Source of the DNA: Methanobacteriota archaeon
Lineage (GTDB): Archaea; Altiarchaeota; Altiarchaeia; IMC4; QMZM01
Assembly (NCBI GenBank): GCA_903930485.1
Contig: CAIYYO010000245.1
Location: 1-40,913 of the forward strand
Direction of reading: 5' to 3'
DNA length: 40,913 bases
The notes below the pieces were generated by a model. The model did no database searches and was not told the DNA's origin. It worked only from the letters and a program-made list of their open reading frames with translations. Made by a program: the position numbers and the translations under genes. Position 1 is the first letter of the stretch, and the number at the start of each line of letters is the position of its first letter. Shown here piece after piece: positions 11,971 to 37,327 of this stretch.

Positions 11971-12065
11971 CAGTGTCGATTTTTTCTAGTAAACCATGCC
12001 TATGCCCCTTAATTCTTCACCGACCTTTCAGAGGTGGTTACAAGGCTCGGTAAGCTAAAATTAAA

Positions 12066-12455: not shown

Positions 12456-12465
12456 AAATAAATTA

Positions 12466-12497
12466 TTTTTTTCTTTTTCTTATCTATTTTTTTTAAA
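12466..12497 (+). terminator. Poly-T terminator tract
   Basis: tttttttctttttcttatctatttttttt lies immediately after the stop at 12455. Confidence 0.4.
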
Positions 12498-12625
12498 CGT
12501 CTGCGATTTTACGAAGTCATTGACTCGTGGGCCGCTGGATTTGGGTCGAGTTAGGAGCAGCCGAAAGAGACGTTTGAATCCTATCCCTCATTAATCTTAA
12601 TATTCTGCCTCCTCATAATCTACTG

Positions 12626-14041: not shown

Positions 14042-14090
14042 GGGTAACTTTCCCCCATCAGATATTAATCCGTAGACGATTATCTTTTCC

Positions 14091-15779: not shown

Positions 15780-17120
15780 TCAACCGCCGCTCGCCCACAA
15801 TCCTATCAGATTCAGCACCTGCCCTATCGTCGCATGTCCTTGGGCCCATTGCCCTATGATGGTGAGTACTTCTCCGACGGTTACTTGTCCGCATGGCGGG
15901 GTGTCGCCCGGGTTCGCGCAGGACGATGGCATGGTCGTTGTCGTAGTTCCGTAGGTCGTCGTAGTCGCGCCAGGCGTTGTCGTATCCGTTATCTCCACGG
16001 TGTAGTCTTCGACTTCCCCGAAGTAGATCGGGTCGCATGGGCCCTTGCTTAGCCAGTTGTCCGTGATCCTCATCCTGGTCTTTCCCGTGAGGGCGTTTGC
16101 TGGCACTGTCATCGTCTTCGTGAAAGTGTGCGTGCCGGAAAACTCGTAGGTTCCGAGGTCTATTGCTTCCCCGGCGTCGGTGTAATCGTGGTCCTGGTTG
16201 TAGTCTATCCAGGCTTTGACGTATTCTCCGGAGTAGTAGCTTACGTTCACCTGGACGGCGAGCACGTATTGTTGTCCTCTTGCGAGCGTCGTCAGTGTCT
16301 GGGCCGTGTAGTCCGAGTAATCGCTTCCGCCCGAAGCCGTCGAGCCTGTGTTCAAGGTTACGCGGCTGATGTATTCGCCGTAGTAGTCGCTGGAGCTTAT
16401 CATGCAATAAGGCGTGCACGATAGCTGGGTCACGTTGAATCCCGTGTAGCCTAAGGAGCCGTCTACGGATTTGTCGCTGGTGAATCTGATCGTCGTTGTC
16501 GAGTTCAGGGGCGCGTAGAATCCCGACCATTGGCCTGAGAGCTCCTGGTTTCCGAGCGTCAGCGTGTCGTAATAATCTTCAGTTTTTCCTTTAGAGTATG
16601 CCCCCATCTGCATGTTCCCGGGGCATGTGCACGTGATGGAGCAGTTCATGTTGCTCCCGTACTCGGTCTGGTTGAGGCTTATGCTTACGTTGTTCACTCC
16701 CTCGGCAAGTCCTGAGCATGACCAGGAGGGACAGGGTTTTGTCTGGGCGTTCGGGGTGTTGTCCACTGTGACGTAGACCATGTCCCGGCTTGAGATGTTG
16801 TTCGAGTCGGTGACTGTCAGCCTTAGCGTGTATTGCCCGTCCGGGACTTTCGAGGTGTTCCATGAGCCCAGTATGCTCTGGTTTATGTTCGACGTTCCTC
16901 CGCCGGTGAGCCCTATGCCTGTTGTGGTCCAGTTAGCCGGGTTCCGGCCTGGTCCGACCTCGAGCACGTACCTTGCGATGTTCGGGCTTATCGCCGTGCC
17001 GTTCACCCTGGTCGTACCGTTGATGAAGCCTTCCTGGTTGGTGACGCACCCGCAACTGAACAAGACGAGGACGGCAAGCATGACTGCCCCTGACTGTTCA
17101 TTTCTCTTCATAGGTGACAC
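15780..17120 (-). CDS. Secreted protein: subtilase-associated Ig-like N-domain + CUB-like domain + GEVED domain + Thr-rich linker + tandem dockerin-like C-terminal motif
   Basis: 446 aa.
- Signal/lipobox-like AVLVLFSCGC.
- ARYVLEVGPGRNPANWTT...VPDGQYTLRLTVTDSNN...VYVTVDN.
- CUB-like ...TTTIRFTSDKSVDGSLGYTGFNVTQL.
- ...YFGEVEDYTVEI (GEVED signature).
- TDTTTPGATTTTYGTTTTT linker.
- Tail VTVGEVLTIIGQWAQG / ATIGQVLNLIGLWASG.
The start overlaps the upstream S8 protease gene by 23 nt. Confidence 0.75.
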   Translation of the reverse strand: MSPMKRNEQSGAVMLAVLVLFSCGCVTNQEGFINGTTRVNGTAISPNIARYVLEVGPGRNPANWTTTGIGLTGGGTSNINQSILGSWNTSKVPDGQYTLRLTVTDSNNISSRDMVYVTVDNTPNAQTKPCPSWSCSGLAEGVNNVSISLNQTEYGSNMNCSITCTCPGNMQMGAYSKGKTEDYYDTLTLGNQELSGQWSGFYAPLNSTTTIRFTSDKSVDGSLGYTGFNVTQLSCTPYCMISSSDYYGEYISRVTLNTGSTASGGSDYSDYTAQTLTTLARGQQYVLAVQVNVSYYSGEYVKAWIDYNQDHDYTDAGEAIDLGTYEFSGTHTFTKTMTVPANALTGKTRMRITDNWLSKGPCDPIYFGEVEDYTVEITDTTTPGATTTTYGTTTTTMPSSCANPGDTPPCGQVTVGEVLTIIGQWAQGHATIGQVLNLIGLWASGG

Positions 17121-21447: not shown

Positions 21448-22335
21448 ATGTTGCTACTACCCGTGCTTGTCGTGCTCGCATCTATCGTGTTCCTGGGACT
21501 CGCCAGCCTGGCCGACCTGCGCACCGGAGAAGTCCCGGACGGACTAAGCTACGGCTATACGGTTGTGATGATCCTGCTTGCGGCCTACGGCTCTTACACA
21601 TTCAATGACACCTCGCTTGTGACCGACTCCCTCATAATGGGTGCATGTTTTTTCATAGCCGGGTTCTTAATGTTCTACCTCGGGCAATGGGGCGGCGGAG
21701 ACGTGAAAGTCCTAGCAGGGATAGGCTGCGCCCTCGGATCCCTCAACCATATAGGATACCTTCCGCAGGCCGCGCTCTCCTTTTATCCCTACTACCTGTC
21801 GTACCTGACAAACCTGATCTTCATAGCGTTCCCGTATGCCGCGATCTACGGCCTCGTTATCGGCTTCAATAATCCCGACACGCGGAAGGAATTCGGCGCC
21901 TACGTTGGAAAGGCCAGGACAAAGGCGATATTGATAGCGTCTTTGTCCCCCTCGCTCCTTGCATTCCTCGTAAACCTCCAGAAGCTGGCCTCGTTCTATT
22001 TACTCCTGCCGGTCATGCTCACCGTCGCGCTTTACCTCAAAGCGGTCGAGAAAACAGCACTCAGGCAGTCAAAGGATGTAAAGGACCTGCGAGAAGGCGA
22101 CGTCGCGGCAGAAGACCTCGCTTGCGGCAACGAAACAATCGCGAGCAAGAGAGACATCGAAGGCATGAGCCCGGACGCTATCAAAAAGATCCAGGAACTG
22201 TCTGCAAAGGGAGAGCTTCCGGGCAGGATAGTAATAAAAAGAGGCATCAAGTTCACGCTTGTATTGTTCCTCGCATTCCTAACGTCAGTCTACCTCGGCA
22301 ACCTGGTGGAGATAATCACTGGTTTGCTGATATAG
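21448..22335 (+). CDS. A24-family aspartic prepilin/preflagellin peptidase (FlaK/PibD/EppA/TadV-like), copy 1
   Basis: 295 aa and polytopic. First catalytic Asp in LASLADLRTGEVPD, second in the GxGD-type motif QWGGGDVKVLAGIG. There is no methyltransferase domain. Confidence 0.8.
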   Translation: MLLLPVLVVLASIVFLGLASLADLRTGEVPDGLSYGYTVVMILLAAYGSYTFNDTSLVTDSLIMGACFFIAGFLMFYLGQWGGGDVKVLAGIGCALGSLNHIGYLPQAALSFYPYYLSYLTNLIFIAFPYAAIYGLVIGFNNPDTRKEFGAYVGKARTKAILIASLSPSLLAFLVNLQKLASFYLLLPVMLTVALYLKAVEKTALRQSKDVKDLREGDVAAEDLACGNETIASKRDIEGMSPDAIKKIQELSAKGELPGRIVIKRGIKFTLVLFLAFLTSVYLGNLVEIITGLLI

Positions 22336-22345
22336 CGACGGCTGG

Positions 22346-24280
22346 TCAGCACTGGAGGGCCGGCAGCGTCGAGAGATAATCCATGCACTTCTGGCAGAAA
22401 GCCCTCGGACCTGGAGCGTTGGCCGCGCTCATAATGCATCTGCCGCCTGCAGGGTCTTTATTCCCGAAACATGTTCCGTCGTCCCGATTAGACGAGCACA
22501 GGGTTCCGCCTGCGCAGTATCCTGTCCATTTGCTCTCGCTGGCGTCTCCTCCGCCGATAAGGGCGTCAAGGCAATTGGCTTTGGAGTTGGCGTCATGCGG
22601 AAAACACCTGCACGTGTCCCTGTACTCGTCGTTCAGTCCCCAGCCGTGACCCAGCTCGTGCAGCGCGTAATAAGGCATATCAGGCTCGGCCGCCCCCTGA
22701 GTGTAAACGACGCCGCTTCCCGGCCAGTCGAAGCCGCCTATCTCGCCTCCGCAGGTGCTGAGGTCCTCCATCCCGATGAAATAGGTCGCATCCGAAGTCT
22801 TGTCTTTGCCGCAGGCCTTTATCGTCTCCATGAGCTTTTCCTGGAAAGCCCCGGCAGAGCATTCCGCGTCCGTGGCCGGGATGGTGATGGCGCATTGCTT
22901 GTCGGTAGTGCTGAATTCCACTTTGGCAGGGCAGTTCTTCAGGGGTGTGAGCGTCTTGATCAGGTTTGCGACTTCGTTGGCTTTGTCCGTGAAGCTCAGA
23001 GAATTCCATGAGCCAAGCTGGACGAAAACGAATTTCAGTTTAGTTGTGGGGTTCGGGACAGGCGCGTTCACCGAGACTTTGGCCGCGGCCGAGACGGTCA
23101 CCGTGTCGCACAAACACCCGTACGACACCGTGTAATCGCCGTTGCCGGGATAGAAATTCTTCTCGCTCGTGGAGGCGGAATCCACCTGTTTAGGGCCGTC
23201 GACCCCGCCCCAGTCCAGCCCGCATTTCTCGCACAACACGCTGGCTCCGGCACTGTTCACGTATCCGTTGCTGAGAGTCGCATAGACTGTGCTGTACGGG
23301 ACCGAAGATTCGCTCCTGCCCTGGAAAGAGCCCAAAGTCAGGCCGACCTTGGCGGTGCATGTCGGATCATACGTGCAGCAGCAGCCTCCGGGACAGGTCT
23401 TGCATTTCTCCTGCTGCTTGCACGTTTTCATATTCATCCCTTCGCCGCAGACATAGTTGCATTTGTCGTCGCATGCGCTCTTTATGACGATTATCTGACA
23501 AAGCTGGCCGTACTTTGCGGCATCAGCCGTCCATTTCCCGCCGGCGCAGCAGAGCTTGTCCGGGTTTTCCCTGCACGGACAATCGGTTCCAGTGCATGCC
23601 TCCCCGGCGACGTATTTCGAGGTTGTTCCCCCGATGACGAAAGAATACGACCCAAGGTTGGTGCAATCGCAATTCAACGGAGAAATAGCCCCGCCGGTCA
23701 CGTAATTCAGGGCCGGGATCGCTATCCCAAGGAAAAGCAGGCCGACAAGCGCGTTAATGACCCAGCCGCGCATCACTGCCCTGAGATGCGGATCTCCGGA
23801 GGACATGTACCTTAGAGCCGCCACAAGGATTATCAATGCCGCGACGAATGCTGCGACGTATTCGAACAGGCATATTACGCGGCACGAGACGGCGTCGAAG
23901 AATTCCTTTATCTGGTGATGGGGCGTGCATGCGCAATTGAAGGATGCGAAGACCTTTTTAGTCAGGCCCTGCTGCGACCCTTCGACGAACATGTTCAATG
24001 CGGGCAGGGCTATCAAAACCAGCACGAGGCCCACCATTGCATACATTATATAACTCTTCATAGAGTGCCTTACGCCGGGGTCGTCGGACGTCATGTAGCG
24101 AAAGCCCGAGAGGACGATGACGACGGCAGATATCGCGAGGATGACGTATTCGATAAAGCAGGCCATGTTGCAGACTATGGAATCATAGACGCCCTTCAGC
24201 TCCGTTGAGATCGGGCCCGCGTAAACCGGCGTCACGACAAAGAAAAACAATGCCGCGGCAAGCAGTAGTCTGTACTCCAT
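22346..24280 (-). CDS. Secreted membrane protein: two tandem VirB2/TrbC-type pilin-like hairpins + Cys-rich region + metzincin-like Zn-protease motif (HExxHxxGxxD)
   Basis: 644 aa.
- Signal peptide ...TPVYA/GP.
- Hairpin 1: ILAISAVVIVLSGFRYMTSDDPGVRHSMKSYIMYAMVGLVLVLIALPALNMFV ... FNCAC.
- Hairpin 2: AAFVAALIILVAALRYMSSGDPHLRAVMRGWVINALVGLLFLGIAIPALNYV ... LNCDC.
- About 45 Cys follow.
- YALHELGHGWGLNDEY at 22646..22660 (HELGH).
- A possible Met-turn, GRCIMSA, lies 70 residues further on. Confidence 0.8.
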   Translation of the reverse strand: MEYRLLLAAALFFFVVTPVYAGPISTELKGVYDSIVCNMACFIEYVILAISAVVIVLSGFRYMTSDDPGVRHSMKSYIMYAMVGLVLVLIALPALNMFVEGSQQGLTKKVFASFNCACTPHHQIKEFFDAVSCRVICLFEYVAAFVAALIILVAALRYMSSGDPHLRAVMRGWVINALVGLLFLGIAIPALNYVTGGAISPLNCDCTNLGSYSFVIGGTTSKYVAGEACTGTDCPCRENPDKLCCAGGKWTADAAKYGQLCQIIVIKSACDDKCNYVCGEGMNMKTCKQQEKCKTCPGGCCCTYDPTCTAKVGLTLGSFQGRSESSVPYSTVYATLSNGYVNSAGASVLCEKCGLDWGGVDGPKQVDSASTSEKNFYPGNGDYTVSYGCLCDTVTVSAAAKVSVNAPVPNPTTKLKFVFVQLGSWNSLSFTDKANEVANLIKTLTPLKNCPAKVEFSTTDKQCAITIPATDAECSAGAFQEKLMETIKACGKDKTSDATYFIGMEDLSTCGGEIGGFDWPGSGVVYTQGAAEPDMPYYALHELGHGWGLNDEYRDTCRCFPHDANSKANCLDALIGGGDASESKWTGYCAGGTLCSSNRDDGTCFGNKDPAGGRCIMSAANAPGPRAFCQKCMDYLSTLPALQC

Positions 24281-26121: not shown

Positions 26122-26985
26122 ATGATCCTATTCTCAGGAAGCTCATGCGTTAGTCTAGGGCGCAAGGTGGCGGCCGGTCTGGGCGCCAGGTTGGGCGAGG
26201 CCAAGATAGACCGGTTCCCTGACGGCGAGATATACCTGCGAGCGCTCACCCCTGTAAAAGGCGAGGAATGCGTTCTCGTCCAGTCGACGCTCGGCAACGG
26301 CAACCTGGTGGAACTTATCCTTTTCATGGACCTTTTGCGGGACCGCGGAGCCTCGAAGATACATGCCGTGGTCCCCTATCTTGGATATGCGAGGCAGGAC
26401 AAGTCATTCAACGAAGGCGAGGCCCTGAGCGCCAAGACAGTCCTCAAGGTATTGCACGAATTCCCGGACACCCTGACAACGGTGAACTGCCACTTCCTGG
26501 ACAAGGAAGGCTCATTTCAATTCCACGGCATAGAACTCACGAACATAGACGCGTTCCCGTTGCTCGCCGCCTATTTCAAGGACAGATTAAAGAATCCGGT
26601 CCTTATAGCGCCGGACAAGGGCTCTCTCCACTACGCGAAGCACGCGGCAGAGGCGATAGGCTGCGAATTCGATTTCCTCCAGAAGAAGCGGCTGACGAGC
26701 GAAAAAGTCTTGATCGAGACCAAGAAGCTCTCGGTTGCGGGAAAGGACGCATTGATCCTAGACGACATGATATCCACGGGCGGGACGATCATCGAGGCCG
26801 CCAGGCTCCTGAAAAGCCAGGGGGCGGCGTCGGTTAGCGTGGGATGCGTTCACGGGGTCTTCTCGCACGGGGTGGAAGGTGTTAAGTCCGCGGTGGATTC
26901 GCTGGTATGCACCGACACAATCGACAGGGGGGGCATCAGTGCGGTAAGCGTGGCCGGCCTCATCGCAAAAAGCCTCCAGAGATGA
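26122..26985 (+). CDS. prs: Ribose-phosphate pyrophosphokinase (PRPP synthetase)
   Basis: 287 aa. DRFPDGEIYLR, VVPYLGYARQDK, and the PRPP-binding loop LILDDMISTGGTI. Confidence 0.92.
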   Translation: MILFSGSSCVSLGRKVAAGLGARLGEAKIDRFPDGEIYLRALTPVKGEECVLVQSTLGNGNLVELILFMDLLRDRGASKIHAVVPYLGYARQDKSFNEGEALSAKTVLKVLHEFPDTLTTVNCHFLDKEGSFQFHGIELTNIDAFPLLAAYFKDRLKNPVLIAPDKGSLHYAKHAAEAIGCEFDFLQKKRLTSEKVLIETKKLSVAGKDALILDDMISTGGTIIEAARLLKSQGAASVSVGCVHGVFSHGVEGVKSAVDSLVCTDTIDRGGISAVSVAGLIAKSLQR

Positions 26986-28475
26986 AACTCAAATACGTGG
27001 TTTTCGTCTGCGGAGCCGTTGTGATGGCTCTTGAGATCCTCGGAAGCAGGGTCATCGCTCCTTTCTACGGAAATTCCTTGTATGCGTGGGGGAGCCTTAT
27101 CGGGGTGATATTGGGCGCTCTCAGCCTTGGTTATTATCTCGGCGGAAGGGCGGCAGATAGGGATCCATCATTCCACGGCCTTTCCATGATCATGTTAAAG
27201 GCCGGTTTCCTCATCGCTTTAATCCCCTTTCTCTCTCCCGTTGTGCTAGATCCCTCCCTGGTGTATCTGATGGGTATGAGGTACGGAGCCCTTGTTTCGG
27301 TTCTGTTCCTGTTCACGGCTCCAAGCGTTTATCTCGGGATGGTGTCTCCTTACGCCGTTAAGCTCGAAGCCAAGAACCTGGAGGCCATCGGAAATACTGC
27401 GGGAAACCTGTATGCCATCTCCACGATGGGGAGCATAGCCGGAACGTTTCTCACGTCATTTTTCCTGATACCCGAAATAGGGGTTCAGGCGATAATATAC
27501 CTATTAAGCGCCATCCTCATACTCTCGGCCTTGATTTCTTCAGGGAAAAAGATTCTGGCGCCTATTCTGCTATGGTCTGCGGCCTTTGTCGTAGCGTCTC
27601 TTTCCCTTTCGACTTACAGCACAGCGGCTCCGGATTATTCCATCCTGTTCCAAAAGGACTCAGCATACTATCAGGTAAAGGTCGTTGAAGACGTCAACAA
27701 GTCCGAGAGGCTTCTATTTCTTGACGGATCCTACACCGGAGGCATGTTTACCAACTCAACCGATGCGGTATTTCAATACACCGATTACTTCCATCTGCCT
27801 TACGTACTCGATCGCGGGATATCCGATGTCCTATTCATGGGCGGGGGCGCCGGGACAGGGCCTAAGCGTTTCCGAGGAGCATATCCTGAGGATAACATAG
27901 ATGTGGTCGACATAGATCCGGAAGTGAACAAAGAAGCTTTGGAATATTTCGATCTTCTGGCCGATGAAAAGATGAAGATATATGCCGAAGAGGGCAGGAC
28001 ATTTCTTGCAAATACGCCAAAGAAATACGACCTGATAGTCCTGGACGCGTTCTCTTCGAGAAATACGGTCCCCTACCACTTTATGACCAAGGAATTCATC
28101 GGCACGGTAAAGGACCGTCTGACCGTAAACGGGTCGGTGATCATCAATTTCCACTCCGCGATCACGGGCCCAAAATCAGGCTTGTTCAATGCGGAATACC
28201 GGACGTACAAAGCAGTGTTTCCCACGGTCTACGTATTCCCCGTAGAGTCGGATCCTGAAGAACTACAAAACGTCATAATGATCGCCTCAAAATCCGGCAA
28301 ACGCCTGACAAGGCAGGAATTCATCGAAGGCGCAGGGAATCTGTCAAAGCAAACCGGAATAACGCATTTAGGCGAATATGCGGGCCATCTGCTTGAGACC
28401 GAGCCGGCGGAAGGCATCCTCCTGACCGACGATTACTGTCCTGTTGACAATCTGCTTCTGCCTGCGATAAATTGA
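26982..28475 (+). CDS. Membrane-fused spermidine/spermine synthase-family protein
   Basis: The start is set at MKLKYVVFV (ATG 26982, an ATGA overlap with the prs stop); the track ORF start at 26907 lies inside prs. About 7 N-terminal TM helices precede a class-I methyltransferase-fold aminopropyltransferase region (VLFMGGGAGTGP..., DLIVLDAFS). Confidence 0.8.
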   Translation: MKLKYVVFVCGAVVMALEILGSRVIAPFYGNSLYAWGSLIGVILGALSLGYYLGGRAADRDPSFHGLSMIMLKAGFLIALIPFLSPVVLDPSLVYLMGMRYGALVSVLFLFTAPSVYLGMVSPYAVKLEAKNLEAIGNTAGNLYAISTMGSIAGTFLTSFFLIPEIGVQAIIYLLSAILILSALISSGKKILAPILLWSAAFVVASLSLSTYSTAAPDYSILFQKDSAYYQVKVVEDVNKSERLLFLDGSYTGGMFTNSTDAVFQYTDYFHLPYVLDRGISDVLFMGGGAGTGPKRFRGAYPEDNIDVVDIDPEVNKEALEYFDLLADEKMKIYAEEGRTFLANTPKKYDLIVLDAFSSRNTVPYHFMTKEFIGTVKDRLTVNGSVIINFHSAITGPKSGLFNAEYRTYKAVFPTVYVFPVESDPEELQNVIMIASKSGKRLTRQEFIEGAGNLSKQTGITHLGEYAGHLLETEPAEGILLTDDYCPVDNLLLPAIN

Positions 28476-29365: not shown

Positions 29366-30457
29366 GTGATGCAACCCCTGCTCGATCTATTCTCGGTATT
29401 GACGGCGCTGGCCGGCTGTTTTATCGCCCTCAGGTCCGACCTGGCGACCGGGAAGATCCCTAATAGGCTGACTAATAGAATGCTTGCGGCATCGTTTATT
29501 CTGATGATCCTCCGGGTTTTTTCAGGGGACTCGTCATACCTCGGGCTGTATCTTCTGAATTTCGCAGCAGGCTTCGTCATCGGGTTCGTTTTCTGGTACG
29601 TCCAGGCATGGTCGGGCGGAGACGCCAAGATATTCTGGGCCATCGCATCCCTGATACTAGTTTATCCTCCGGCGCTGGAGGGGTTGTTTGGGGTGAGCCA
29701 GCCTTATTATTCCTCTCAGGTTTTTGCAGTGACCGTACTTTTCAACATGGGGCTGCTGCTCCTATTGCGTTTTCTTTTCATGGGATTAACCAAATTCCTG
29801 AAAGAAGGAAAGATAATAGACGCTTTCAGGCTCACGACGTCCCCGATGATCTATATCATGGCGTCTACCTTGATCGGGACCGGATTGGCGGCCGTGGCAG
29901 GAATACCTGCCTTGATTTACGTTTCGTGGCCGGTTATCTTTCTCCTTTCCGTAATAGAGCGGAGCTCGTACAGGAAATTCCTGGTTTCATCGGCTCTCAT
30001 AGCCGTTCTAGGGTTCGCGGCACTATCTCTGACGTCTAAACAGAACATTGCCTACGAACTGCTCTCGAACAAGCAAACGCTTGGCATAGCATTCCTCCTT
30101 TCGGCTTATGCAGCAGGCTCAAGGATCCCTTTCACGAAAAATATGCCCATCAAGGATTTAAAGACAGGGATATCGGTGGCCGAGGAAATATACACCACGG
30201 ACGGCTCGATCATCCGCGAGGAAGTCAATCCTTCCCTTATGTATTCCTTTCTCTCGATTCTGAAGCCCAGGAGAAACTATATCGTCCGTCCCACCCCGGC
30301 AGGCCTTTCAGAAAGGGACATAGAGGAGTTGAAAACGCATGAAGCCGATCTTGGAGGTTCCATTAAGGTAAACCAGAGCTTCCTGTTGATGCCCTATATA
30401 ACCGCCGCCCTGCTGCTTTCTCTGTATGCTGATTTCCTGTGGATCCTGCTTTCCTGA
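29366..30457 (+). CDS. A24-family aspartic prepilin peptidase (TadV/CpaA/PibD-like), copy 2, adjacent to the pilus locus
   Basis: 363 aa and polytopic. First Asp in IALRSDLATGKIPN, second in AWSGGDAKIFWAI. The start is GTG 29366 or ATG 29369. Confidence 0.78.
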   Translation: MMQPLLDLFSVLTALAGCFIALRSDLATGKIPNRLTNRMLAASFILMILRVFSGDSSYLGLYLLNFAAGFVIGFVFWYVQAWSGGDAKIFWAIASLILVYPPALEGLFGVSQPYYSSQVFAVTVLFNMGLLLLLRFLFMGLTKFLKEGKIIDAFRLTTSPMIYIMASTLIGTGLAAVAGIPALIYVSWPVIFLLSVIERSSYRKFLVSSALIAVLGFAALSLTSKQNIAYELLSNKQTLGIAFLLSAYAAGSRIPFTKNMPIKDLKTGISVAEEIYTTDGSIIREEVNPSLMYSFLSILKPRRNYIVRPTPAGLSERDIEELKTHEADLGGSIKVNQSFLLMPYITAALLLSLYADFLWILLS

Positions 30458-30470
30458 TTCCCGCGGGGAA

Positions 30471-32339
30471 TCACATCATGCCTTCAAAAACGAGCTGCAT
30501 GACCACGACCGTCAGGGAGAATATGATCGCCGCTACCGGGAGATAGATCCCGAGATGGTATTTCTTTATCACGGCATCCCTGCCGTATATCAGGTCGTCC
30601 GAGAACATGGCAAGGATAGCCGTCGTCTCTAGGACGTAGATGCCTATCACCAGTTTGATGACCTCGGGGTTCAGCGTCTTTACGACAAGGCCTCCGAAGC
30701 CGAGCCCGGAGACGTCGCTTTCGCTCAAGGTCTTGGATAGCAGATAGCCGAGGCTTGTAGCTACCCCGCCCACGAGGGGGCCGACGAACACTGCGATAAT
30801 CACCATGGACGCTGTGACGTTGCCGATGATCTTCTTCATCTCGGCATCGACGGTCCGCATATTCCTTATGTGCTCGGACAGCCGTATTATCACCGAGGCG
30901 ATGGATTTCGAATTCCTGCCGGACATCGATACGATGGTGTCGAGGGAGCTGTGTATCATCTCGGAGTATATTTTTGAGGCCGAGCCTCCCCTCTTTCCGA
31001 AGAACGCTTCGCGCATGTCGATATTGAACAGCCGGATGTTGTTCGCTGCCATGGAGAAGATGTTGGCCGTGCGTCCCCTGTTCAGGTCCGAGATGTGCGC
31101 CATTGCGTTAGGAAGGGGCCGGCCGCTCGACAAAAGAACTGAAAGCTGCCTGAGGGTTTCGGAAAATTCTTCTTCTATGTCCTTTATCTCGTCCCTCATT
31201 TTCTTTACGCTGTAAGACGATCCTACCAAGTAAATGCCCAAACCGACTGTTATGCCGATGAGGATGAGCGACGTACCTAAAGGATAGTTCGGCGCCTCGT
31301 CACGCAGCGAGGAACCGAGGTCGAGAAAGCCGAGAAGGCAAATAGAGGCGGCGATAAGTGCTATCACTCCGTAAAAGGCGTACCTTACCGGCCTGTTCCC
31401 GGCCTTTATGCCGAAGAATCGGTTGTACTCCTCTGCGGGGATCTCTATCGGCGGAAATGTTATGGGCTTGCTGCTTATGATGAAGCTGACGGCGATGTAT
31501 AATAGTATTGGGAGGACGACGTCGTAGAGGAAGAATATTACGAGAGGCGAGACCTCTATCCCGATGGTCGGCATCACGGGTACAAGGCCTATGAAAATGA
31601 GCGGGAGTATAACAAGAAATGTGAAAACAACGAGGATGGGCGTTTCGAGCTTTCTCGAAGCCGTATCTGTCCTTTCTCGCAGCCCGCTGAGGAGGACGTT
31701 CATCCCGTTGTCGAGCATCATCCACCGGTTCTTCTCGCTGGATTCCAGCGTCGAGGCAATCAAGAGCTGCATGAAGGCCTTGAACTCAGGGATATTGCCC
31801 CACTCGTCTGCGAATTTGGACAAAGACTCGACGATGCTCGAGCTTCTGCCCATGTCTATGTCGAAGACCATCCTCTTTAAAAGCTTCTTCGGAAAACCCG
31901 GGGTATGCTCTGAAGCGAACTCGACCGCCTTCTCGATTATCGGGCTGATGCGTAGAGAGATGACAAGGTAGCTTGCTATGGCTGGTATGTGCCCCAGCAT
32001 CTCGGTCTTCTTCGATTCCAGGAGTATCTGCGGGTATTTCTCGACGTACAGGTAAACGGCCAACGGAAGAATGAGAAAGAAGACGTACAAAGGCGTGAAC
32101 AGAGTAGAAGAGACCATCGAAACCAATACCATCGCCAGGATGAGGATGAATAAGACTATAGCTGCTCCAAGGGATAGAGCATGCACCTCCTTAGGCTTTA
32201 CTTTGATCTCGAGAAGGTCCAAGGTGTCTTCAAGGAGCTTGTCCTGTTTAGACGTTTTCTCCTGCTCGACGGTCTTTCCAAGATGCCTGTAGGCCAGACG
32301 GCATAAGCTTTCGAACAGCGTTGGACGGTCCTTTTTCAT
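30471..32339 (-). CDS. Type IV pilus platform membrane protein, fused TadB/TadC (FlaJ/PilC, T2SS-F) type
   Basis: 622 aa and polytopic. Two cytoplasmic helical T2SSF-like modules are each followed by TM segments. It lies immediately downstream of the secretion ATPase in the same orientation. Confidence 0.75.
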   Translation of the reverse strand: MKKDRPTLFESLCRLAYRHLGKTVEQEKTSKQDKLLEDTLDLLEIKVKPKEVHALSLGAAIVLFILILAMVLVSMVSSTLFTPLYVFFLILPLAVYLYVEKYPQILLESKKTEMLGHIPAIASYLVISLRISPIIEKAVEFASEHTPGFPKKLLKRMVFDIDMGRSSSIVESLSKFADEWGNIPEFKAFMQLLIASTLESSEKNRWMMLDNGMNVLLSGLRERTDTASRKLETPILVVFTFLVILPLIFIGLVPVMPTIGIEVSPLVIFFLYDVVLPILLYIAVSFIISSKPITFPPIEIPAEEYNRFFGIKAGNRPVRYAFYGVIALIAASICLLGFLDLGSSLRDEAPNYPLGTSLILIGITVGLGIYLVGSSYSVKKMRDEIKDIEEEFSETLRQLSVLLSSGRPLPNAMAHISDLNRGRTANIFSMAANNIRLFNIDMREAFFGKRGGSASKIYSEMIHSSLDTIVSMSGRNSKSIASVIIRLSEHIRNMRTVDAEMKKIIGNVTASMVIIAVFVGPLVGGVATSLGYLLSKTLSESDVSGLGFGGLVVKTLNPEVIKLVIGIYVLETTAILAMFSDDLIYGRDAVIKKYHLGIYLPVAAIIFSLTVVVMQLVFEGMM

Positions 32340-32346
32340 GTTCTCT

Positions 32347-34683
32347 TCAAGCCTTCTTCGCCTTCAACGCCTTAACGTATTTCTCGGCCCAGGCAGCCCA
32401 TTTGTCGAAGATCTTGTCGTAATCCACGTCCCGGAACCTGCCTCCGTCCCTGTATCTCTGGTCGTCCACCATCGACAAATATTTTTTATTGTAGTCGGCA
32501 GAAGCCTTAAGCTCAAGGATTTCATGCAATCCGGTAACACGGTGCCAGCCGATGATCTTTTCATACATCTTCGACCTCACCAAAGTTTCCTTCCACACGT
32601 GCTCGAGAGTGGTTCCCCTCCGGCCGGCGACGAACCTGATAATCTGCGAGCTTTTAGGATCCAAGCCCTGCGGCACTTCAAGGCAGTCTTTTTCGCTGTC
32701 GTACTCCATCAGGGTCGTGAAAAGGCTATCGGCCTGGGCTCCGCTTCCTATGCTCTCTATGTCTACGTCTTTGTTCAGCTCCGCGATCTCGCTGACTCTC
32801 CGACCTACCGGAAGCCTCTGCGTCACTACCACGGCGTCGGTGGCCTTGAAAGACGTCGCCGGGATGTTCAAGTCGTAAACCACTCGTTCGAAAACGTCTC
32901 TCGGGCCTCTCCCGTGGATCGTTCCTAGGACGGTGTTGCCGGTAGCTCCGACACGTATCGATTCGTACAATACTCTGGCTTCCTGTCCCCTTACCTCCCC
33001 GACGACGATGCTCGACTCCCCCATACGCAAAGAAGACCTCAGCGCGTCATCTGCGGTGATGTTTATCCCCTCGCTCGTGGTTATCGGCTTAGACAGCATC
33101 CTCTGGACCCGGAAACCGATCGCGTTCATCTCCGGGACAGGCAGCTCCAAGGTGTCTTCAAGAGTCAGTATCCTGTACTTAGGATTCATCGACGACATGA
33201 TGCCCCCGAGAAAAGACGACTTGCCGGTTCCGCGGCCGCCTACGATGAGAAGCGCCACCTGGTCGTTGACCATCAAAGTCAGAAGGGCGGCGCCTAGCGG
33301 CGATATCATCTTGTTCTCGACGAACATCGGCATCGTCCAGGGGATCTCGTTCTTGCACCGCAGAGAGAAAGCGATCCCGTCAGGCGAAAGCGGCGGCGCT
33401 ATCACGCTGACACGCGTCTTCAATTCCTCCAGGTCCATGTCCAGTATCGGAGAATTAGGAGAGAGACCTATCCCGCTCTTTAGCACGAATTTCAGGACAA
33501 AGTTGTTGCCCCTGTCCTCGGAGAGATAAATGTTGGTCCTGCAGTCGTCATGGTCGCGGTGCTTGACGTAGACCGGCGTCGTCTCCATCGGCGAATTCAC
33601 ATACACGTCGTTAATATTCGGGTCTTTCAAGAGGAGCTCAATCACGTCCAGGCCTCGCGTGCACCTTATAAGAGTAGAGACCAACTCATTGGTTTCCTTG
33701 ATGCCGAGCAAGATCCCTTTAAGAGAAGCCTCCTCCAGAAGCCTTATCTTGCAAAGAGCCTCGAACTTCTTCTTCGCGCTCTGAGACGTATCCGTCGACT
33801 CTATCTGGCTGCCGGCCGTCTTGAGAAGCCAATCCCTCGTCTGGATAAGAAGCTCAAGGATTTCGGGCTTAGACCGCAGCTCGTACTCCGGAGGTATTAT
33901 GTAATAAAGGTCCTCGTTCCAGGAAGGGATCCTGTAAAGCCTGACCCTCGCCCCGCATACGAAATATTCCTTGCCGAGCGGCTTCGCGTCTTCGGGAAGG
34001 TCCAGCACTATCCTTGCCTCGGAAAGGAACGGCCTCACCTTTGCGATAAAGATCTTCCGGTAAACATCCGAAGTCTTCAGGTCAGGGTAATCAAGGGATT
34101 TTTCGACAAGCTTCGTCTCCTTAAGAGATTTCTTCAAGTAGTCAAGGGTACTTATCCTAAGGTTCGCGCACTTCCGGCATTCAGGCTTTAAATGAACTAT
34201 CTCTTTTTCAACAGGGGAATCCAGGCCCCTATAAGCTTTTATCGGGTCGGTCTTGATCGATTCTATCAACGTCTCCCTCAGGTTTTTCACGTTCTCGGCG
34301 CATTCGCCGCACTCCTCCCGGTATATGCCGAAACATGCCCCGCCGGCGTTGACTGCGATCTCGGATATCTCTTTAAGGGTCTCGACTTCCTCTTTTTCGT
34401 ATTCTTCTGTTGTAAGCCGTCTTGAGAATTCTATCTTGTCTACCGGGTTCTGGATGAGCTTTGTTATCACTTGTTTCCTGCATACGTCATCAGAAAGATT
34501 GGAGGAATGCCTGCATCCTTCGCAGTTCATCCTTAAAGTGGTAAGGCCTACTGCATGGTCTATGTCGTAGCGTTCTTCGCAGGGCGGGACGTATTCGGTG
34601 TTTGTTTTTTTGCCGATCAGCTTCATGACTTCGTCTCTTATCTTTTCGGCATCGCTTATCCTGCTTTGGTTTTCTTTAGGCAT
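32347..34683 (-). CDS. Type II/IV secretion-family ATPase (TadA/FlaI/PilB-like) with a ~370-aa N-terminal extension rich in CxxC pairs
   Basis: 778 aa. Walker A LLIVGGRGTGKSSFLGG (33214..33240). The downstream ILTLEDTLEL and GESSIVVGEVRG are typical of the Asp/His boxes and Walker B region. The N-terminus contains CEGC, CGEC and CRKC. Confidence 0.9.
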   Translation of the reverse strand: MPKENQSRISDAEKIRDEVMKLIGKKTNTEYVPPCEERYDIDHAVGLTTLRMNCEGCRHSSNLSDDVCRKQVITKLIQNPVDKIEFSRRLTTEEYEKEEVETLKEISEIAVNAGGACFGIYREECGECAENVKNLRETLIESIKTDPIKAYRGLDSPVEKEIVHLKPECRKCANLRISTLDYLKKSLKETKLVEKSLDYPDLKTSDVYRKIFIAKVRPFLSEARIVLDLPEDAKPLGKEYFVCGARVRLYRIPSWNEDLYYIIPPEYELRSKPEILELLIQTRDWLLKTAGSQIESTDTSQSAKKKFEALCKIRLLEEASLKGILLGIKETNELVSTLIRCTRGLDVIELLLKDPNINDVYVNSPMETTPVYVKHRDHDDCRTNIYLSEDRGNNFVLKFVLKSGIGLSPNSPILDMDLEELKTRVSVIAPPLSPDGIAFSLRCKNEIPWTMPMFVENKMISPLGAALLTLMVNDQVALLIVGGRGTGKSSFLGGIMSSMNPKYRILTLEDTLELPVPEMNAIGFRVQRMLSKPITTSEGINITADDALRSSLRMGESSIVVGEVRGQEARVLYESIRVGATGNTVLGTIHGRGPRDVFERVVYDLNIPATSFKATDAVVVTQRLPVGRRVSEIAELNKDVDIESIGSGAQADSLFTTLMEYDSEKDCLEVPQGLDPKSSQIIRFVAGRRGTTLEHVWKETLVRSKMYEKIIGWHRVTGLHEILELKASADYNKKYLSMVDDQRYRDGGRFRDVDYDKIFDKWAAWAEKYVKALKAKKA

Positions 34684-34936
34684 TTTGGATTTGCAGAAGG
34701 TAGACTAGGTTAAATAATAGAAATATATATGTATTAAATGTTTATAAATTATGTATATATTATGGTAATTGTTCATAAATAAGCCATTAAATAGTAATAA
34801 ATGTCTGGAAATAATGTAATCGGGCTTATGAACCTGCTTTAGGGGTTAATCTATAGAATTATAAATATTGTTTAATATTTAAATACAAATTACATATAAT
34901 TTACTAATAAATTTAAAGATAAACGACAAAAGTAAA
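34684..34936. promoter_or_regulatory. Very AT-rich divergent control region between the ATPase operon (-) and the pilin operon (+)
   Basis: 253 bp, far more AT-rich than the coding flanks. It contains many TATA-like elements, e.g. catataat at 34893..34900, about 37 nt upstream of the first pilin ATG. Confidence 0.5.
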
Positions 34937-35155
34937 ATGTCAAACAAAATACGAGAGTTTCTAGGAGACGAAAGAGGAGACACAAGCACGGTATTCAAGC
35001 TAGTGCTTGCCATAACGGTGATAGCGGCAGTCCTGGTGATACTGCTATACGTACTGCAGAGCGCGCAGACAGGCGGAAGAAAACTGACGAGTACGCTGAA
35101 CGATACCACAGGGCAGATCACCGAGAACCTGACGAACTTCTCCAAGTCGGCGTAA
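34937..35155 (+). CDS. Flp-like small type IV pilin (class III signal peptide), paralog 1
   Basis: 72 aa. MSNKIREFLGDERG/DTSTVFKLVLAITVIAAVLVILLYVL: an Flp-type leader F-x-x-DE-[RK]-G followed by a hydrophobic helix. Confidence 0.8.
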   Translation: MSNKIREFLGDERGDTSTVFKLVLAITVIAAVLVILLYVLQSAQTGGRKLTSTLNDTTGQITENLTNFSKSA

Positions 35156-35186
35156 GGGTGCTCTATTTTGCGGGATCGCCACAGAA

Positions 35187-35399
35187 ATGGAGAGTTTAAG
35201 GAACTTCTTTCGAGATGAACGAGGCGCATCCTCGATGGTGATAAAACTGGTGCTCGCCGTTACTTTGGGTGCGGCCGTTATCGTTATAATGCTCCAGCTG
35301 ATGCATGTGAACCTGGAAGTAGCTTCGAACAGCTCAAGCACCATGAGATCCGGCGCAAAGAATGCAATGGACGGAACTATGAAACAAATATCGGATTAA
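35187..35399 (+). CDS. Flp-like small type IV pilin, paralog 2
   Basis: 70 aa. MESLRNFFRDERG/ASSMVIKLVLAVTLGAAVIVIMLQL. Confidence 0.8.
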   Translation: MESLRNFFRDERGASSMVIKLVLAVTLGAAVIVIMLQLMHVNLEVASNSSSTMRSGAKNAMDGTMKQISD

Positions 35400-35400
35400 A

Positions 35401-35613
35401 ATGGGCATTTTGAACAAATTCATAAAGGATGAGAAAGGTGCGTCGGACCTCGTATTCAAGCTCGTTCTAGCAATAACCATAGCCGCGATAGTCTTGATAA
35501 TACTCCTGCAGTTGCTCCACCAGACCCAGGACGCGGGGATGAATGCGACGAAAACTGTCGGAGAAGGGCTCAAGACGTTCGCAGAAAATGTATCCAAAGA
35601 ACTCTCGGGCTGA
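35401..35613 (+). CDS. Flp-like small type IV pilin, paralog 3
   Basis: 70 aa. MGILNKFIKDEKG/ASDLVFKLVLAITIAAIVLIILLQL. It starts 1 nt after the stop of paralog 2. Confidence 0.8.
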   Translation: MGILNKFIKDEKGASDLVFKLVLAITIAAIVLIILLQLLHQTQDAGMNATKTVGEGLKTFAENVSKELSG

Positions 35614-36046
35614 GCCTGGCTTCCTGAAAGACACAAGGGGGTCGGGGCTGCAGGACTCTCCCTTCATGATACTTCTTGCCGTACTTGTCATTGTATTCGT
35701 CACGGCACTGGGAACTGGCATCGCTAAGAGTCTCATGGATCTGCAGCAGCACGCGAACGCCGTAGACGCGGCCGAAAAGATATACGATGCCGCAGACCTT
35801 CTAAGCGCAGGGGCGGGAGGCTCGTCAAGGACTCTATGGGTAAATATACCCGCAGGTTACGAGATCTCCTGCGACGGAAACCTTTCCCTGAAAGACGGCA
35901 AAGGAACAATCGGGCAGCCGCTCAAAGTAGACGGGATAACTTTCGAGCCGGCAACCCTCCAAGGAAGGAATGAAAAATATCACCTGAAAATAGAATACGC
36001 TTCCGGAGACGGCAGCCCGACCATAACGGTATCTGAAATAGCATGA
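35588..36046 (+). CDS. Pilin-like (TadE/minor-pilin-like) protein
   Basis: The ORF starts at 35543. I prefer ATG 35588 (MYPKNSRAEPGFLKDTRG/SGLQDSPFMILLAVLVIVFVTAL), which keeps an Flp-like FLKDxRG leader with less overlap. The start is uncertain. Confidence 0.6.
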   Translation: MYPKNSRAEPGFLKDTRGSGLQDSPFMILLAVLVIVFVTALGTGIAKSLMDLQQHANAVDAAEKIYDAADLLSAGAGGSSRTLWVNIPAGYEISCDGNLSLKDGKGTIGQPLKVDGITFEPATLQGRNEKYHLKIEYASGDGSPTITVSEIA

Positions 36047-36846
36047 AACACCGTATATCCTCGTGCAAAAGGGGCTACGTGACCTGGAGCATCTCAAGGA
36101 TCGGCGTAATGATGGCAGTCGTCCTGCTCATTCTCCTACTTTACATGATCTATCAATACGTGTCCTGCGTCAATGCATCCGATGCCGCGAACCAGGAGGC
36201 TGAGGACCTTGCCGCAGCGATAGAAAAAACGTATTCAGGCCCGTCAGGCCTTGAAACGACGTATACGTTTCCACAATATATTGAGAATCATCCCTATTCA
36301 TTGAACATAGTCTCCGGAGCAAAAAGAGGCATCCTCGTCGACATCTATGGGACAAGGTGCAGCCCTTCCAGGGGTGGGGCATCCCTCGCATCGCCGGTAA
36401 AAGAATATCCAACGCCTGTGAAAAACGAGACAGAAGAGAACGTCACCATAATCATCAAGAACATAGGCGACGGAGTCAGGATAGCAAGGAAGCAGGCATG
36501 CGTCAAATGCGTAGTCTTGGACGAATTCCACTATACTGCGCCCGACGACTGCGACAATCCGAACAAGGAATACGTCCGCCTGAAAAATAAATGCGACACA
36601 TCGTGCGATCTAACTGGGTGGGAGATGAAAGACCGGAAAGGGCATACTTACATTTTCCCATCCTACGAGCTCGAAGCAGGGTTGGCAGTTTCGGTGCACA
36701 CGGGCTGCGGCACCGATTCTTCTCAAGACCTTTACTGGTGCTTCGATTCGGGCGGGCTTTGCAAGGCGGTCTGGAACAACGACGGCGACACTTTATACCT
36801 GCGGGATTCCGAAGGCTTTTTATGCCTTGAATACACCTATCCCTAA
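36043..36846 (+). CDS. Pilin-like N-terminus fused to a C-terminal lamin-tail domain (LTD)
   Basis: 267 aa. The N-terminus is KRG/YVTWSISRIGVMMAVVLLILLLYMI. The C-terminus (36499..36843) is NKEYVRLKNKCDTSCDLTGWEMKDRKGHTYIFPSYELEAGLAVSVHTGCG...AVWNNDGDTLYLRDSEGFLCLEYTY, the LTD pattern (EyVEL.N....dLsGW.l.D..g..y.fp...l..g..v.v.tg.g......iWnN.GD.v.L.D..G). ATGA overlap with the previous gene. Confidence 0.8.
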   Translation: MKHRISSCKRGYVTWSISRIGVMMAVVLLILLLYMIYQYVSCVNASDAANQEAEDLAAAIEKTYSGPSGLETTYTFPQYIENHPYSLNIVSGAKRGILVDIYGTRCSPSRGGASLASPVKEYPTPVKNETEENVTIIIKNIGDGVRIARKQACVKCVVLDEFHYTAPDDCDNPNKEYVRLKNKCDTSCDLTGWEMKDRKGHTYIFPSYELEAGLAVSVHTGCGTDSSQDLYWCFDSGGLCKAVWNNDGDTLYLRDSEGFLCLEYTYP

Positions 36847-36850
36847 CAGG

Positions 36851-37327
36851 ATGGCTTATTCGGGGATAGGTAGAAGAGGCCAGATAGGCCCGATGTCTCT
36901 TGAAGATATTTTCCCGATGCTTGCCGCGATCATAATAGTCTTCATCTTTATCGCCTACATCTATGGGATCGTCGCCGGGAATCTCGAACAGAGGCGGGTC
37001 GAGGCCGGTTACGGGGCCGCAATGGGGCTGTCCGACGAGCTGTATTCTAAAAGTGTTTTTATTTACGGCAACAAATCAGGGCTATTCGATAGCAGGCGGC
37101 TGGATCAATACGCCGGAGATTATCCGGACCTGGCGACGTTGTATGGCATCACTGGGTACGGCTTCTCGGTAGAAGTGCAGGACCTCACGGAACCAGCCCG
37201 CCGTTGGAGCTTTGCGCCGGAAAAAATCGGAACAAACGCGCCCGAGATAGCTTACCCAGTTGCGATCCGCTACTCGGCCGACAAGGTTGATGAGGGTCTC
37301 CTGAAGGTCAAGGTCTGGAAGCTCTAA
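36851..37327 (+). CDS. Pilin-like (class III signal peptide) protein
   Basis: ORF from 36827. I prefer ATG 36851 (MAYSGIGRRGQ/IGPMSLEDIFPMLAAIIIVFIFIAY), just after the stop of the previous gene. Confidence 0.6.
   Translation: MAYSGIGRRGQIGPMSLEDIFPMLAAIIIVFIFIAYIYGIVAGNLEQRRVEAGYGAAMGLSDELYSKSVFIYGNKSGLFDSRRLDQYAGDYPDLATLYGITGYGFSVEVQDLTEPARRWSFAPEKIGTNAPEIAYPVAIRYSADKVDEGLLKVKVWKL

Follow-up and report, generated by a model that had tools for sequence, protein, structure and literature searches.

Minimal Flp-like pilins beside a 4F-like ATPase and platform: a predicted type IV pilus locus of an uncultured altiarchaeon

What kind of type IV filament is encoded by a locus whose short pilins resemble those of bacterial Tad (Flp) pili, but whose ATPase and platform do not? 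The question is raised by nine contiguous genes at positions 29366-37327 of a stretch of 40,913 nt (41 kb) of DNA from an uncultured Altiarchaeota archaeon (GCA_903930485.1, contig CAIYYO010000245.1), referred to here as the window. A preliminary description of this DNA called them a Tad/Flp-like (Epd-like) locus. We find that the name suits the pilins but not the machinery: the platform is fused, the ATPase lies outside the TadA clade, and no homolog of TadZ, of the secretin or of TadE/F was found in the window. The locus is likely to encode a complete type IV pilus of this freshwater-sediment organism, with an ATPase and platform that are 4F-like and not of the Epd/Tad lineage.

All nine open reading frames (ORFs) are present where the preliminary description had placed them, as are the spacer, the F-x-x-D-E-[RK]-G leaders, a gap of 1 nt at 35400 and an ATGA overlap at 36043-36046. 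They are listed below in amino acids (aa), with a second peptidase gene 7 kb upstream given last. A slash marks the predicted cleavage site.

29366..30457, + strand: A24 prepilin (class III signal) peptidase, long and linked to the locus, 363 aa (from Pfam, hydropathy and motifs)
30471..32339, - strand: platform protein of the PilC/TadC/ArlJ family, one fused two-domain gene, 622 aa (two T2SSF stretches)
32347..34683, - strand: assembly ATPase, 778 aa (T2SSE)
34684..34936, no strand: divergent AT-rich intergenic region, 253 bp (20.9% GC)
34937..35155, + strand: short pilin of paralog group A, 72 aa, leader FLGDERG, predicted cleavage DERG/DTSTVFK
35187..35399, + strand: short pilin of paralog group B, 70 aa, leader FFRDERG, predicted cleavage DERG/ASSMVIK
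35401..35613, + strand: short pilin of paralog group C, 70 aa, leader FIKDEKG, predicted cleavage DEKG/ASDLVFK
35588..36046, + strand: gene 7, minor pilin-like protein, 152 aa, leader GFLKDTRG/SGLQDSPFMILLAVLVIV
36043..36846, + strand: gene 8, minor pilin-like protein with a C-terminal Lamin Tail Domain (LTD), 267 aa, Cys-rich, leader KRG/YVTWSISRIGVMM
36827..37327, + strand: gene 9, pilin-fold protein, 166 aa, leader RRG/QIGPMSLEDIFP, weak DUF7285 match
21448..22335, + strand: second, shorter A24 peptidase paralog, 295 aa (Peptidase_A24 41.5 bits, Arc_PepC 23.3 bits)

Membership of the type IV filament superfamily is indicated by a T2SSE domain, two T2SSF domains, a Peptidase_A24 domain and six proteins in which a [KR]G leader precedes a hydrophobic helix (TRG/S, KRG/Y and RRG/Q in genes 7, 8 and 9). 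The locus is complete, as had been claimed, in that an ATPase, a platform, an A24 peptidase, three short pilins and three larger pilin-like proteins are all present. Gene 7 most likely starts at the ATG at 35588, giving 152 aa, rather than at the first start of the ORF at 35543, because the resulting 26-nt overlap with the pilin C gene recurs identically in three related loci (L001, L003 and L088). Gene 9 may start at an ATG at 36851 (158 aa) instead of the TTG at 36827 (166 aa). The spacer has 20.9% GC, compared with 52.5% for the window. It is AT-rich in relatives too, with a length of 81 to 253 bp among the five loci aligned, and aligns poorly beyond close relatives. It is presumed to hold the promoters of both divergent operons.

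The three small ORFs are real genes under purifying selection. Between the window and its 87%-identical relative, L088, pN/pS is 0.15 for pilins A and C, 0.30 for pilin B and 0.28 for gene 7, and the short pilins have a synonymous divergence of 0.40-0.66 and a non-synonymous divergence of 0.06-0.19. Clustering of such short pilins at 90% identity gives 72 clusters, with lengths of 54-79 aa (63-79 in nearly all), and these fall into three orthologous groups. The leader is conserved in 45 relatives (F-7 in 42/45, D-4 in 45/45, E-3 in 38/45, R-2 in 40/45 and G-1 in 43/45), and the mature proteins share the start [ADE]-[TS]-[SD]-x-V-F-[KR]-L-V-L-A. Because the leader is conserved across these 45 relatives and the genes are under purifying selection, the pattern is not a product of chance. 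The mature pilins have 57-60 residues and lack a globular domain. In the mature part, N-x-S/T sequons number 1.8, about three times the 0.55 that shuffles predict, and the mature form of pilin A, of 58 aa, carries three of them. This is as expected for the exposed surface of an archaeal pilin, which would be N-glycosylated.

The family is small, and all of its named members are altiarchaeal. Pfam and NCBIfam scans of the three pilins and the 45 relatives, at E up to 10, gave no match to Flp_Fap, Class_IIIsignal (PF04021), TadE or Pilin_N, and returned only spurious transmembrane-like matches (Sec61_beta, SecG and TrbC). Pilin_N (PF07790) in fact matches none of the six substrates. Nothing significant was found when the pilin profile was compared with sequences in the PDB; among pilin-like proteins archaellins came highest, at E 0.18, and there was no Tad pilin. 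A HMMER search of 1.84 billion representative proteins recovered only 23 relatives, of 54-84 aa; those with names come from Altiarchaeales, and the complete sequences have the leader described above and a start of the VFKLAL type. The same search recovered no canonical Flp at E <= 1e-3 and no KGQ-type Epd pilin.

Comparison of profiles with hhalign does reveal a likeness to Flp. As references we took six bacterial Flp pilins, encoded in annotated tad loci of plasmids, among them a Ralstonia 'Flp family type IVb pilin' (MKHAILQFLRDEQG/ATAIEYGLLAG) whose leader, FLRDEQG/AT, is of the same kind as those in the window. The altiarchaeal profile matched Flp at 91.5% (E 8.8e-7, 53 columns) with the leaders in register, and each paralog group matched by itself at 71-88%. 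The C-terminal tails also match, as in TVGEGLKTFAENV of pilin C and TLGTEIKTAFGNV of Flp, and the altiarchaeal helix is 15-16 residues longer, which appears in the alignment as an insertion. As controls, a reversed Flp alignment gave 0.5% and 30 column-shuffled Flp alignments gave at most 1.2%. The Flp profile reached only 6-22% against the pilins and mini-pilins of DPANN archaea and against a Methanococcus archaellin. The short pilins are therefore unusually Flp-like for archaeal pilins, as the preliminary description had proposed.

The features shared with the Tad/Flp system (type IVc; in Caulobacter crescentus CpaF and PilA, filament PDB 8U1K, ATPase 8RKD) comprise a mature pilin of 40-60 residues without a globular domain, the FxxDExG leader, T at +2, an aromatic residue at +6, L and [IV] at +8/+9, and a C-terminal tail resembling T-x-G-x-x-L-x-x-F (PMC10710030). 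The all-helical principle of the filament is probably shared as well. The residues that define Flp, namely E5, Y6 and G7 (PMC10710030), are however not kept in the 45 members: +5 is V in 42/45, +6 is F, I or L, and +7 is K or R in 41/45, with T/S retained at +2 and A, D or E at +1. The conserved K/R at +7 lies within the hydrophobic helix and is usually accompanied by D/E at +1, +3 or +4, and may stand in for the E5-based charge neutralization of bacterial pilins. The hallmarks of Epd pilins, Q at +1 and E at +5 (PMC3875500), are likewise absent from the 45 short pilins, which also gave no match to the DUF361/Class_IIIsignal motif; Q at +1 occurs in gene 9 alone.

An even closer match was obtained with the pilins found next to homologous ATPases in DPANN archaea (97.1%, E 6.6e-11). 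Their N-terminal helix is homologous to that of the altiarchaeal pilins, with D/E at +3/+4 and VF[KR]L in common, but they reach about 180 aa, start with a KGQ leader, possess a head domain and are accompanied by mini-pilins of about 55 aa. The altiarchaeal family thus looks like an intermediate between DPANN-type archaeal pilins and Flp, having a DPANN-type N-terminal helix minus the head, and a Flp-like leader and tail.

The machinery gives a different picture. A single gene, in which two T2SSF stretches are recognized, encodes the platform. Of 76 related loci that gave a platform match, those that are complete have one full-length gene for it (about 510-790 aa) adjoining the ATPase gene; shorter matches are cut by contig ends, and two (L017 and L080) are broken in two pieces. 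In contrast, the cpaF-2 locus of Rhizobium has two platform genes of about 317 aa. The preliminary description had held that TadB and TadC correspond to a single fused gene in Epd-like pili, which reverses the published statement: what defines the clade of Epd-like and Tad systems is a pair of homologous platform genes, each with a single T2SSF domain, and a longer two-domain protein is found in most other systems of archaea (Denise et al. 2019, PMC6668835). A 2026 preprint from the Albers laboratory (Sivabalasarma & Albers) agrees, describing 'system 1' as having a split platform. Domain scans of the large ORFs in the 41-kb window found no ATPase like TadZ, FlaH, MinD, CbiA or KaiC and no secretin domain such as that of RcpA.

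The ATPase begins with an extension of about 235 residues, which is followed by an archaeal-type N-domain and by a RecA-like core with a Walker A motif, GGRGTGKS, at residues 482-489. Its scores against the NCBIfam models for TadA (TIGR03819; 119 bits, cutoff 373) and FlaI (118 bits) are both far below the cutoffs. The extension holds eight Cys residues (C35, C54, C57 and C68; C125, C128, C169 and C172) that are conserved in 24-25 of about 30 family members; the CxxC pairs are missing from the Haloterrigena homolog and from several DPANN homologs, those of Pacearchaeota and Nanohaloarchaea among them. In species-representative genomes the family is found at 31-35% identity, over nearly the full length including the extension, in Woese-, Iain-, Micr-, Aenigm-, Pace-, Undin- and Nanohalo-archaeota and in Hadarchaeota, and a Haloterrigena plasmid ATPase is 40% identical over the core region. 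The Walker A motif has an Arg throughout the family, the Haloterrigena plasmid homolog included (GxR[GS]xGK[ST]), where CpaF, AfGspE, FlaI, VirB11 and TrbB have GxT/GxxSGKT. Some related ATPases of about 960-1260 aa (P0034, P0035, P0045 and P0046) contain intein domains (LAGLIDADG_3 and Intein_splicing).

The position of the ATPase was examined in a neighbor-joining tree of 225 core columns with 200 bootstraps, rooted on VirB11/TrbB and with references from annotated plasmids; it supersedes an earlier unrooted tree that had three PDB references alone and no outgroup. The family was monophyletic with the Haloterrigena plasmid ATPase in 200/200 bootstraps, as were the clade 2/3 references (AfGspE, FlaI and PilB3-like haloarchaeal ATPases). 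The family joined CpaF/TadA in 5/200, so that the grouping with TadA expected from the preliminary description is not obtained. Direct scores against the individual references are mixed and not decisive. In a single-sequence search of the PDB, the window ATPase matched CpaF at 101.8 bits, AfGspE at 95 and FlaI at 80; the family profile matched AfGspE at 180.7 bits, CpaF at 161.7 and FlaI at 126.4. An AlphaFold2 model (pLDDT 83.8) compared by Foldseek gave TM-scores of 0.77 for AfGspE (2OAP), 0.76 for FlaI and 0.68 for CpaF.

A better fit is offered by subclade 4F of Makarova et al. 2016 (arCOG01818 ATPase and arCOG01814 TadC; 'subsystem 4F' of Sivabalasarma & Albers 2026). In the description of Makarova et al. 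(including their Fig. S4), the 4F ATPase (MA1299-like) has an extra Cys-rich N-terminal domain whose Cys are not conserved in halobacterial and nanoarchaeal orthologs, and the example locus has one TadC of 581 aa with nine transmembrane (TM) segments after the ATPase. Because the N-terminal Cys pattern and the single TadC-like platform match this description, we infer that the ATPase/platform module belongs to 4F. The module shares with 4F the Cys-rich domain with loss of its Cys in halobacterial and nanoarchaeal orthologs, a single platform gene of about 580-620 aa directly after the ATPase gene (a comparison of architecture, not of arCOG membership), ATPase relatives on a halobacterial plasmid, on contigs labelled Methanosarcinales and in DPANN, and tandem duplication of pilin genes. 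It differs in its pilins: the major 4F pilins (arCOG02981 and arCOG10216) are of the PilA family and have a head, whereas the altiarchaeal candidates are headless, of 57-60 residues, with a Flp-like leader and no Pilin_N. The cognate 4F pilins in nanoarchaea were unknown at the time (Makarova et al. 2016). No CetZ, SMC or coiled-coil partner resembling arCOG07564 was seen at the altiarchaeal locus.

The locus-linked peptidase scores 27.9 bits against Peptidase_A24 (cutoff 26.5) and 21.3 bits, under the cutoff, against Arc_PepC. Both catalytic Asp residues are present (D25, and D86 in a GGD motif), and there are about 9-10 hydrophobic segments, with a soluble domain (residues ~251-338) ahead of the last one. 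A phmmer search against the PDB gave no match, and Pfam found no methyltransferase domain, as the preliminary description had noted. Archaeal A24 peptidases in general are not known to have a methylase domain. Tad prepilin peptidases lack it as well (PMC10191384), and because its absence is common to both it does not single out the TadV type. The 295-aa paralog is 28% identical to the 363-aa peptidase over the catalytic region, is conserved in L088, and could be the general class III peptidase of the organism. The pair would then recall the division of labor between FlaK and EppA (PMC4858521, PMC3875500), EppA being the dedicated Epd peptidase with 9 TM segments (arCOG02300). An ortholog of the 363-aa peptidase adjoins the platform gene, or lies about 1 kb from it, in L088/L089 and L008. 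The linked peptidases of the window (29366-30457) and of L088 (7604-8692) are 60% identical although the ATPases of the two genomes are 87% identical, so that the peptidase evolves much faster than the motor.

The three larger proteins show no profile similarity to TadE/F-like pseudopilins, which the preliminary description had named among the marks of Tad pili: genes 7-9 reach at most 6% against bacterial TadE/F-like proteins by hhalign. Gene 7 has no Pfam match and scores 62% against DPANN pilins, 42% against the short pilins and 6% against TadE/F. Gene 8 carries an LTD at residues 157-266 (6e-17) and is a candidate tip or adhesive subunit. Orthologs of it occur in L001, L003 and L088, and L001 has a second LTD protein of 573 aa. 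Gene 9 is predicted by AlphaFold2 (pLDDT 81.7) to have an N-terminal helix (residues 17-67) and a four-stranded sheet, and, judged by this secondary structure, appears to have a pilin-type fold; Foldseek found no match in the PDB better than E 0.06. Its DUF7285 match has an E-value of 0.0044 and is above threshold in three orthologs.

Could the whole locus nevertheless belong to the Epd-like/Tad lineage, as a relative of the Tad ancestor in which the platform never split or was re-fused? Epd pili of Methanococcus maripaludis (Makarova clade 1 / system 1) are also archaeal, and have a major pilin of about 70 aa (about 60 when mature) that is N-glycosylated, where the altiarchaeal pilins have sequons; they have several minor pilins of 130-300 aa and a second A24 peptidase alongside the general one (PMC3875500, PMC4858521), to which the locus-linked peptidase with its about 9-10 hydrophobic segments may be compared. 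The headless pilins with their Flp-like leader and tail point the same way, as do CpaF as the top single-sequence match and the labels 'UPF0333 family' or 'Flp' given to some family pilins by annotators at the Joint Genome Institute (JGI). The UPF0333 family includes Epd pilins. System 1 is reported in some DPANN in the 2026 preprint. We nevertheless consider this origin unlikely. The platform is fused, here and in the complete related loci, although a pair of one-domain genes is what defines the clade; in Epd, two platform genes are accompanied by a FlaH/MinD-like ATPase, of which the window has no counterpart, and the Epd genes for ATPase and platform are found at a locus of their own. Clade 1 has been reported in methanococci, methanobacteria and thermococci. 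The family hardly ever joins Tad in the bootstraps, its profile prefers AfGspE to CpaF, and Foldseek ranks both AfGspE and FlaI above CpaF. Epd pilins have Q+1, E+5 and the DUF361 motif, where the altiarchaeal short pilins have A, D or E at +1, V at +5 and no match to Class_IIIsignal or Flp_Fap; the larger proteins are unrelated to TadE/F; and the Cys-rich N-terminal domain is a published hallmark of 4F.

The Flp likeness might instead reflect the horizontal gain of a bacterial flp gene by Altiarchaeota, later fitted to an archaeal machine. The leader FxxDExG/AT held in common with bacterial Flp, and a Flp profile that matches these pilins far better than the other archaeal pilins in the set, speak for such a transfer. 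It is nonetheless very improbable, given that the N-terminal helix is nearer to DPANN pilins than to Flp and is 15-16 residues longer than that of Flp, that E5, Y6 and G7 are absent, that the search of 1.84 billion proteins returned no canonical Flp at its threshold, and that the GC content of the pilin genes is similar to that of the remainder of the window. Quite unlikely, too, is a short pseudopilus or a periplasmic or secretion structure (a piston resembling the one in type II secretion, or a bindosome) in place of an external adhesive pilus. The superfamily does build secretion and bindosome systems from the same core parts, the window has no secretin-like gene, and proteins that may be secreted or surface-bound are encoded nearby (an S8 protease, a GEVED/PKD protein and T4SS_pilin-domain proteins). 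Such a structure could be relevant if the organism had two membranes, as Ca. Altiarchaeum does. The double membrane of Ca. Altiarchaeum was described by Perras et al. 2015, as quoted in PMC4975002. Three tandem, highly conserved and sequon-rich pilin paralogs suggest an exposed filament surface, however, and the LTD on a minor pilin is suggestive of an adhesin; no substrate-binding protein with a class III signal is linked to the locus, nor can any secretion substrate be recognized.

A complete pilus with a 4F-like ATPase and platform remains the reading that we prefer, and several points weigh against it. A search for RNA-seq runs returned none. What the analysis shows is gene content, conservation, purifying selection, domains and motifs, profile similarities and the separation of the ATPase clade; cleavage, glycosylation, filament formation, adhesion and the 4F assignment are deduced. 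That assignment comes from matching features and from clustering with a Haloterrigena ATPase that itself carries no 4F label, in a tree that includes no labelled sequences of 4F, clade 1 (Epd) or other clade 4 groups. Neighbor joining is a weak method, and the 225 columns do not settle the deep branching of the family. As a single sequence, the core of the window ATPase is slightly nearer to CpaF (34% identity) than to AfGspE or FlaI (27%). The JGI label is an unverified hint at a possible deeper kinship of the pilins with Epd. The 363-aa peptidase has no locus-linked ortholog in L001 and L003. Finally, any of the three pilins could be the major subunit, and the shaft may consist of one or more of them.

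By analogy with well-studied members of the type IV filament family, the system would operate as follows. The six proteins would be made with class III signal peptides and put into the membrane, where the 363-aa A24 aspartic peptidase would cut behind the conserved Gly, at DE[RK]G/ in the short pilins and at [KR]G/ in the larger three. A hexameric ATPase, acting on the single two-domain platform, would raise the processed subunits from the membrane into a helical filament. The larger proteins would prime or cap the filament, with the LTD as a possible adhesive end, and the shaft would be made of mature 57-60-residue pilins, one kind or several, whose polar C-terminal halves would be glycosylated and form the surface, as in Tad and Epd. 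The likely role of the pilus, judged from its counterparts elsewhere, is adhesion. It had been proposed as the main adhesion or host-attachment filament of the organism, of which the first part is plausible. For attachment to a host no evidence was found in either direction, and Altiarchaeota, as free-living autotrophs, give no reason to expect it.

The locus is conserved among close relatives. The closest named relatives of the ATPase are in metagenome genomes of Candidatus Altiarchaeia/Altiarchaeota (72%, 67% and 66% identity), and the sequence is found in freshwater sediment metagenomes. L001, L003, L008 and L088 have the same layout, with the ATPase and platform genes and, divergently, three small pilins and then proteins of about 150, 270 and 150 aa, the middle one with an LTD. 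An adenosine kinase gene comes next in L003 and L088, as it does in the window, and L003 also has the XPD helicase gene. Loci of DPANN and Hadarchaeota (for example L011, L024 and L085) share the ATPase family, followed by a single platform gene, but not the altiarchaeal set of three headless DERG pilins, LTD protein and DUF7285-like protein.

In L005 and L006, whose ATPase/platform pair is about 40% identical to that of the window, genes for a toxin-antitoxin pair (PIN, or MazE/PemK) come directly after that for the platform (L005 12133-12784, L006 4452-5023). Short DERG pilins are absent from both, and the divergent side in L005 instead encodes proteins of 325-926 aa. The L006 contig also has a second, short T2SSE ATPase of 475 aa (6721-8148), which has 44.8% core identity to CpaF and is farther from AfGspE and FlaI; it may be a TadA/Epd-like paralog in that organism.

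Several other features of the window and its relatives were noted. A 644-aa protein (22346-24280, - strand) lies tail to tail with the 295-aa peptidase gene and combines a TrbC/VirB2/T4SS_pilin domain at its N-terminus with an M12-like metalloprotease region at its C-terminus; L088 retains the pair. Another T4SS_pilin-domain protein of 507 aa (850-2373, - strand; 27.1 bits, barely over the cutoff) makes two such proteins in the window, and L003 has a Cys-rich T4SS_pilin-domain protein of 896 aa directly after the pilus platform gene. Two genes side by side at 15780-19341 (- strand) encode proteins that are probably secreted: a GEVED/PKD-domain protein of 446 aa, and an S8 subtilase of 747 aa that has PA and CUB domains. 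A low-GC island at 12000-14100 (36-38%, compared with about 53%) contains a 129-aa ORF and a gene (12626-14041) for a protein of 471 aa in which HNH-repeat, NinG-like and helix-turn-helix motifs occur, and looks like an inserted mobile or homing-endonuclease-type element. Between the genes for phosphoribosyl pyrophosphate (PRPP) synthase and NucS is a gene (26907-28475, + strand) for a 522-aa membrane protein with a spermidine-synthase-like domain, which is not at the corresponding position in L088; the annotated start gives an overlap of 79 nt with the PRPP synthase gene, and the true start may be later. DNA uptake involving the neighboring NucS and XPD genes was considered and no evidence for it was found, these flanking genes being housekeeping neighbors that vary between relatives. 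Nor was any evidence found for a link to the assembly of hami.

As such, the altiarchaeal pilus is an ordinary archaeal adhesion-type system, one of a kind of which 29,521 loci were counted in archaea in one 2026 survey. What is new is the combination of Flp-like minimal pilins with a fused-platform, 4F-like motor. Our literature search found no paper describing type IV pili in Altiarchaeota. Bird et al. 2016 list a 'flagellar assembly protein J' among the core genes of Alti-2, from which motility was inferred; such 'flagellar' genes may be pilus platform genes of the kind described here.

It is possible, though we hold it only tentatively, that the headless pilins are truly homologous to Flp and, at the sequence level, its nearest archaeal relatives seen so far, built by an unsplit-platform machine that is neither Tad nor Epd. 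If so, either the Flp-type minimal pilin predates the Tad/Epd machinery and the fission of the platform and is separable from them, or the loss of the head and the FxxDExG leader arose twice. In either case the history of the pilins would be uncoupled from that of the motor, which would bear on the proposed archaea-to-bacteria origin of Tad pili. The family, which has no Pfam model, bridges DPANN-type pilins and bacterial Flp at the profile level, and is a test case for whether headless minimal pilins arose once, as implied by the scenario in which Tad derives from Epd, or repeatedly. Flp-like pilins run by a fused-platform 4F-like motor support the idea of an independent evolution of pilin sets and ATPase/platform modules. 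For the Altiarchaeota themselves, the locus suggests a candidate surface filament beyond the hami-bearing Ca. Altiarchaeum.

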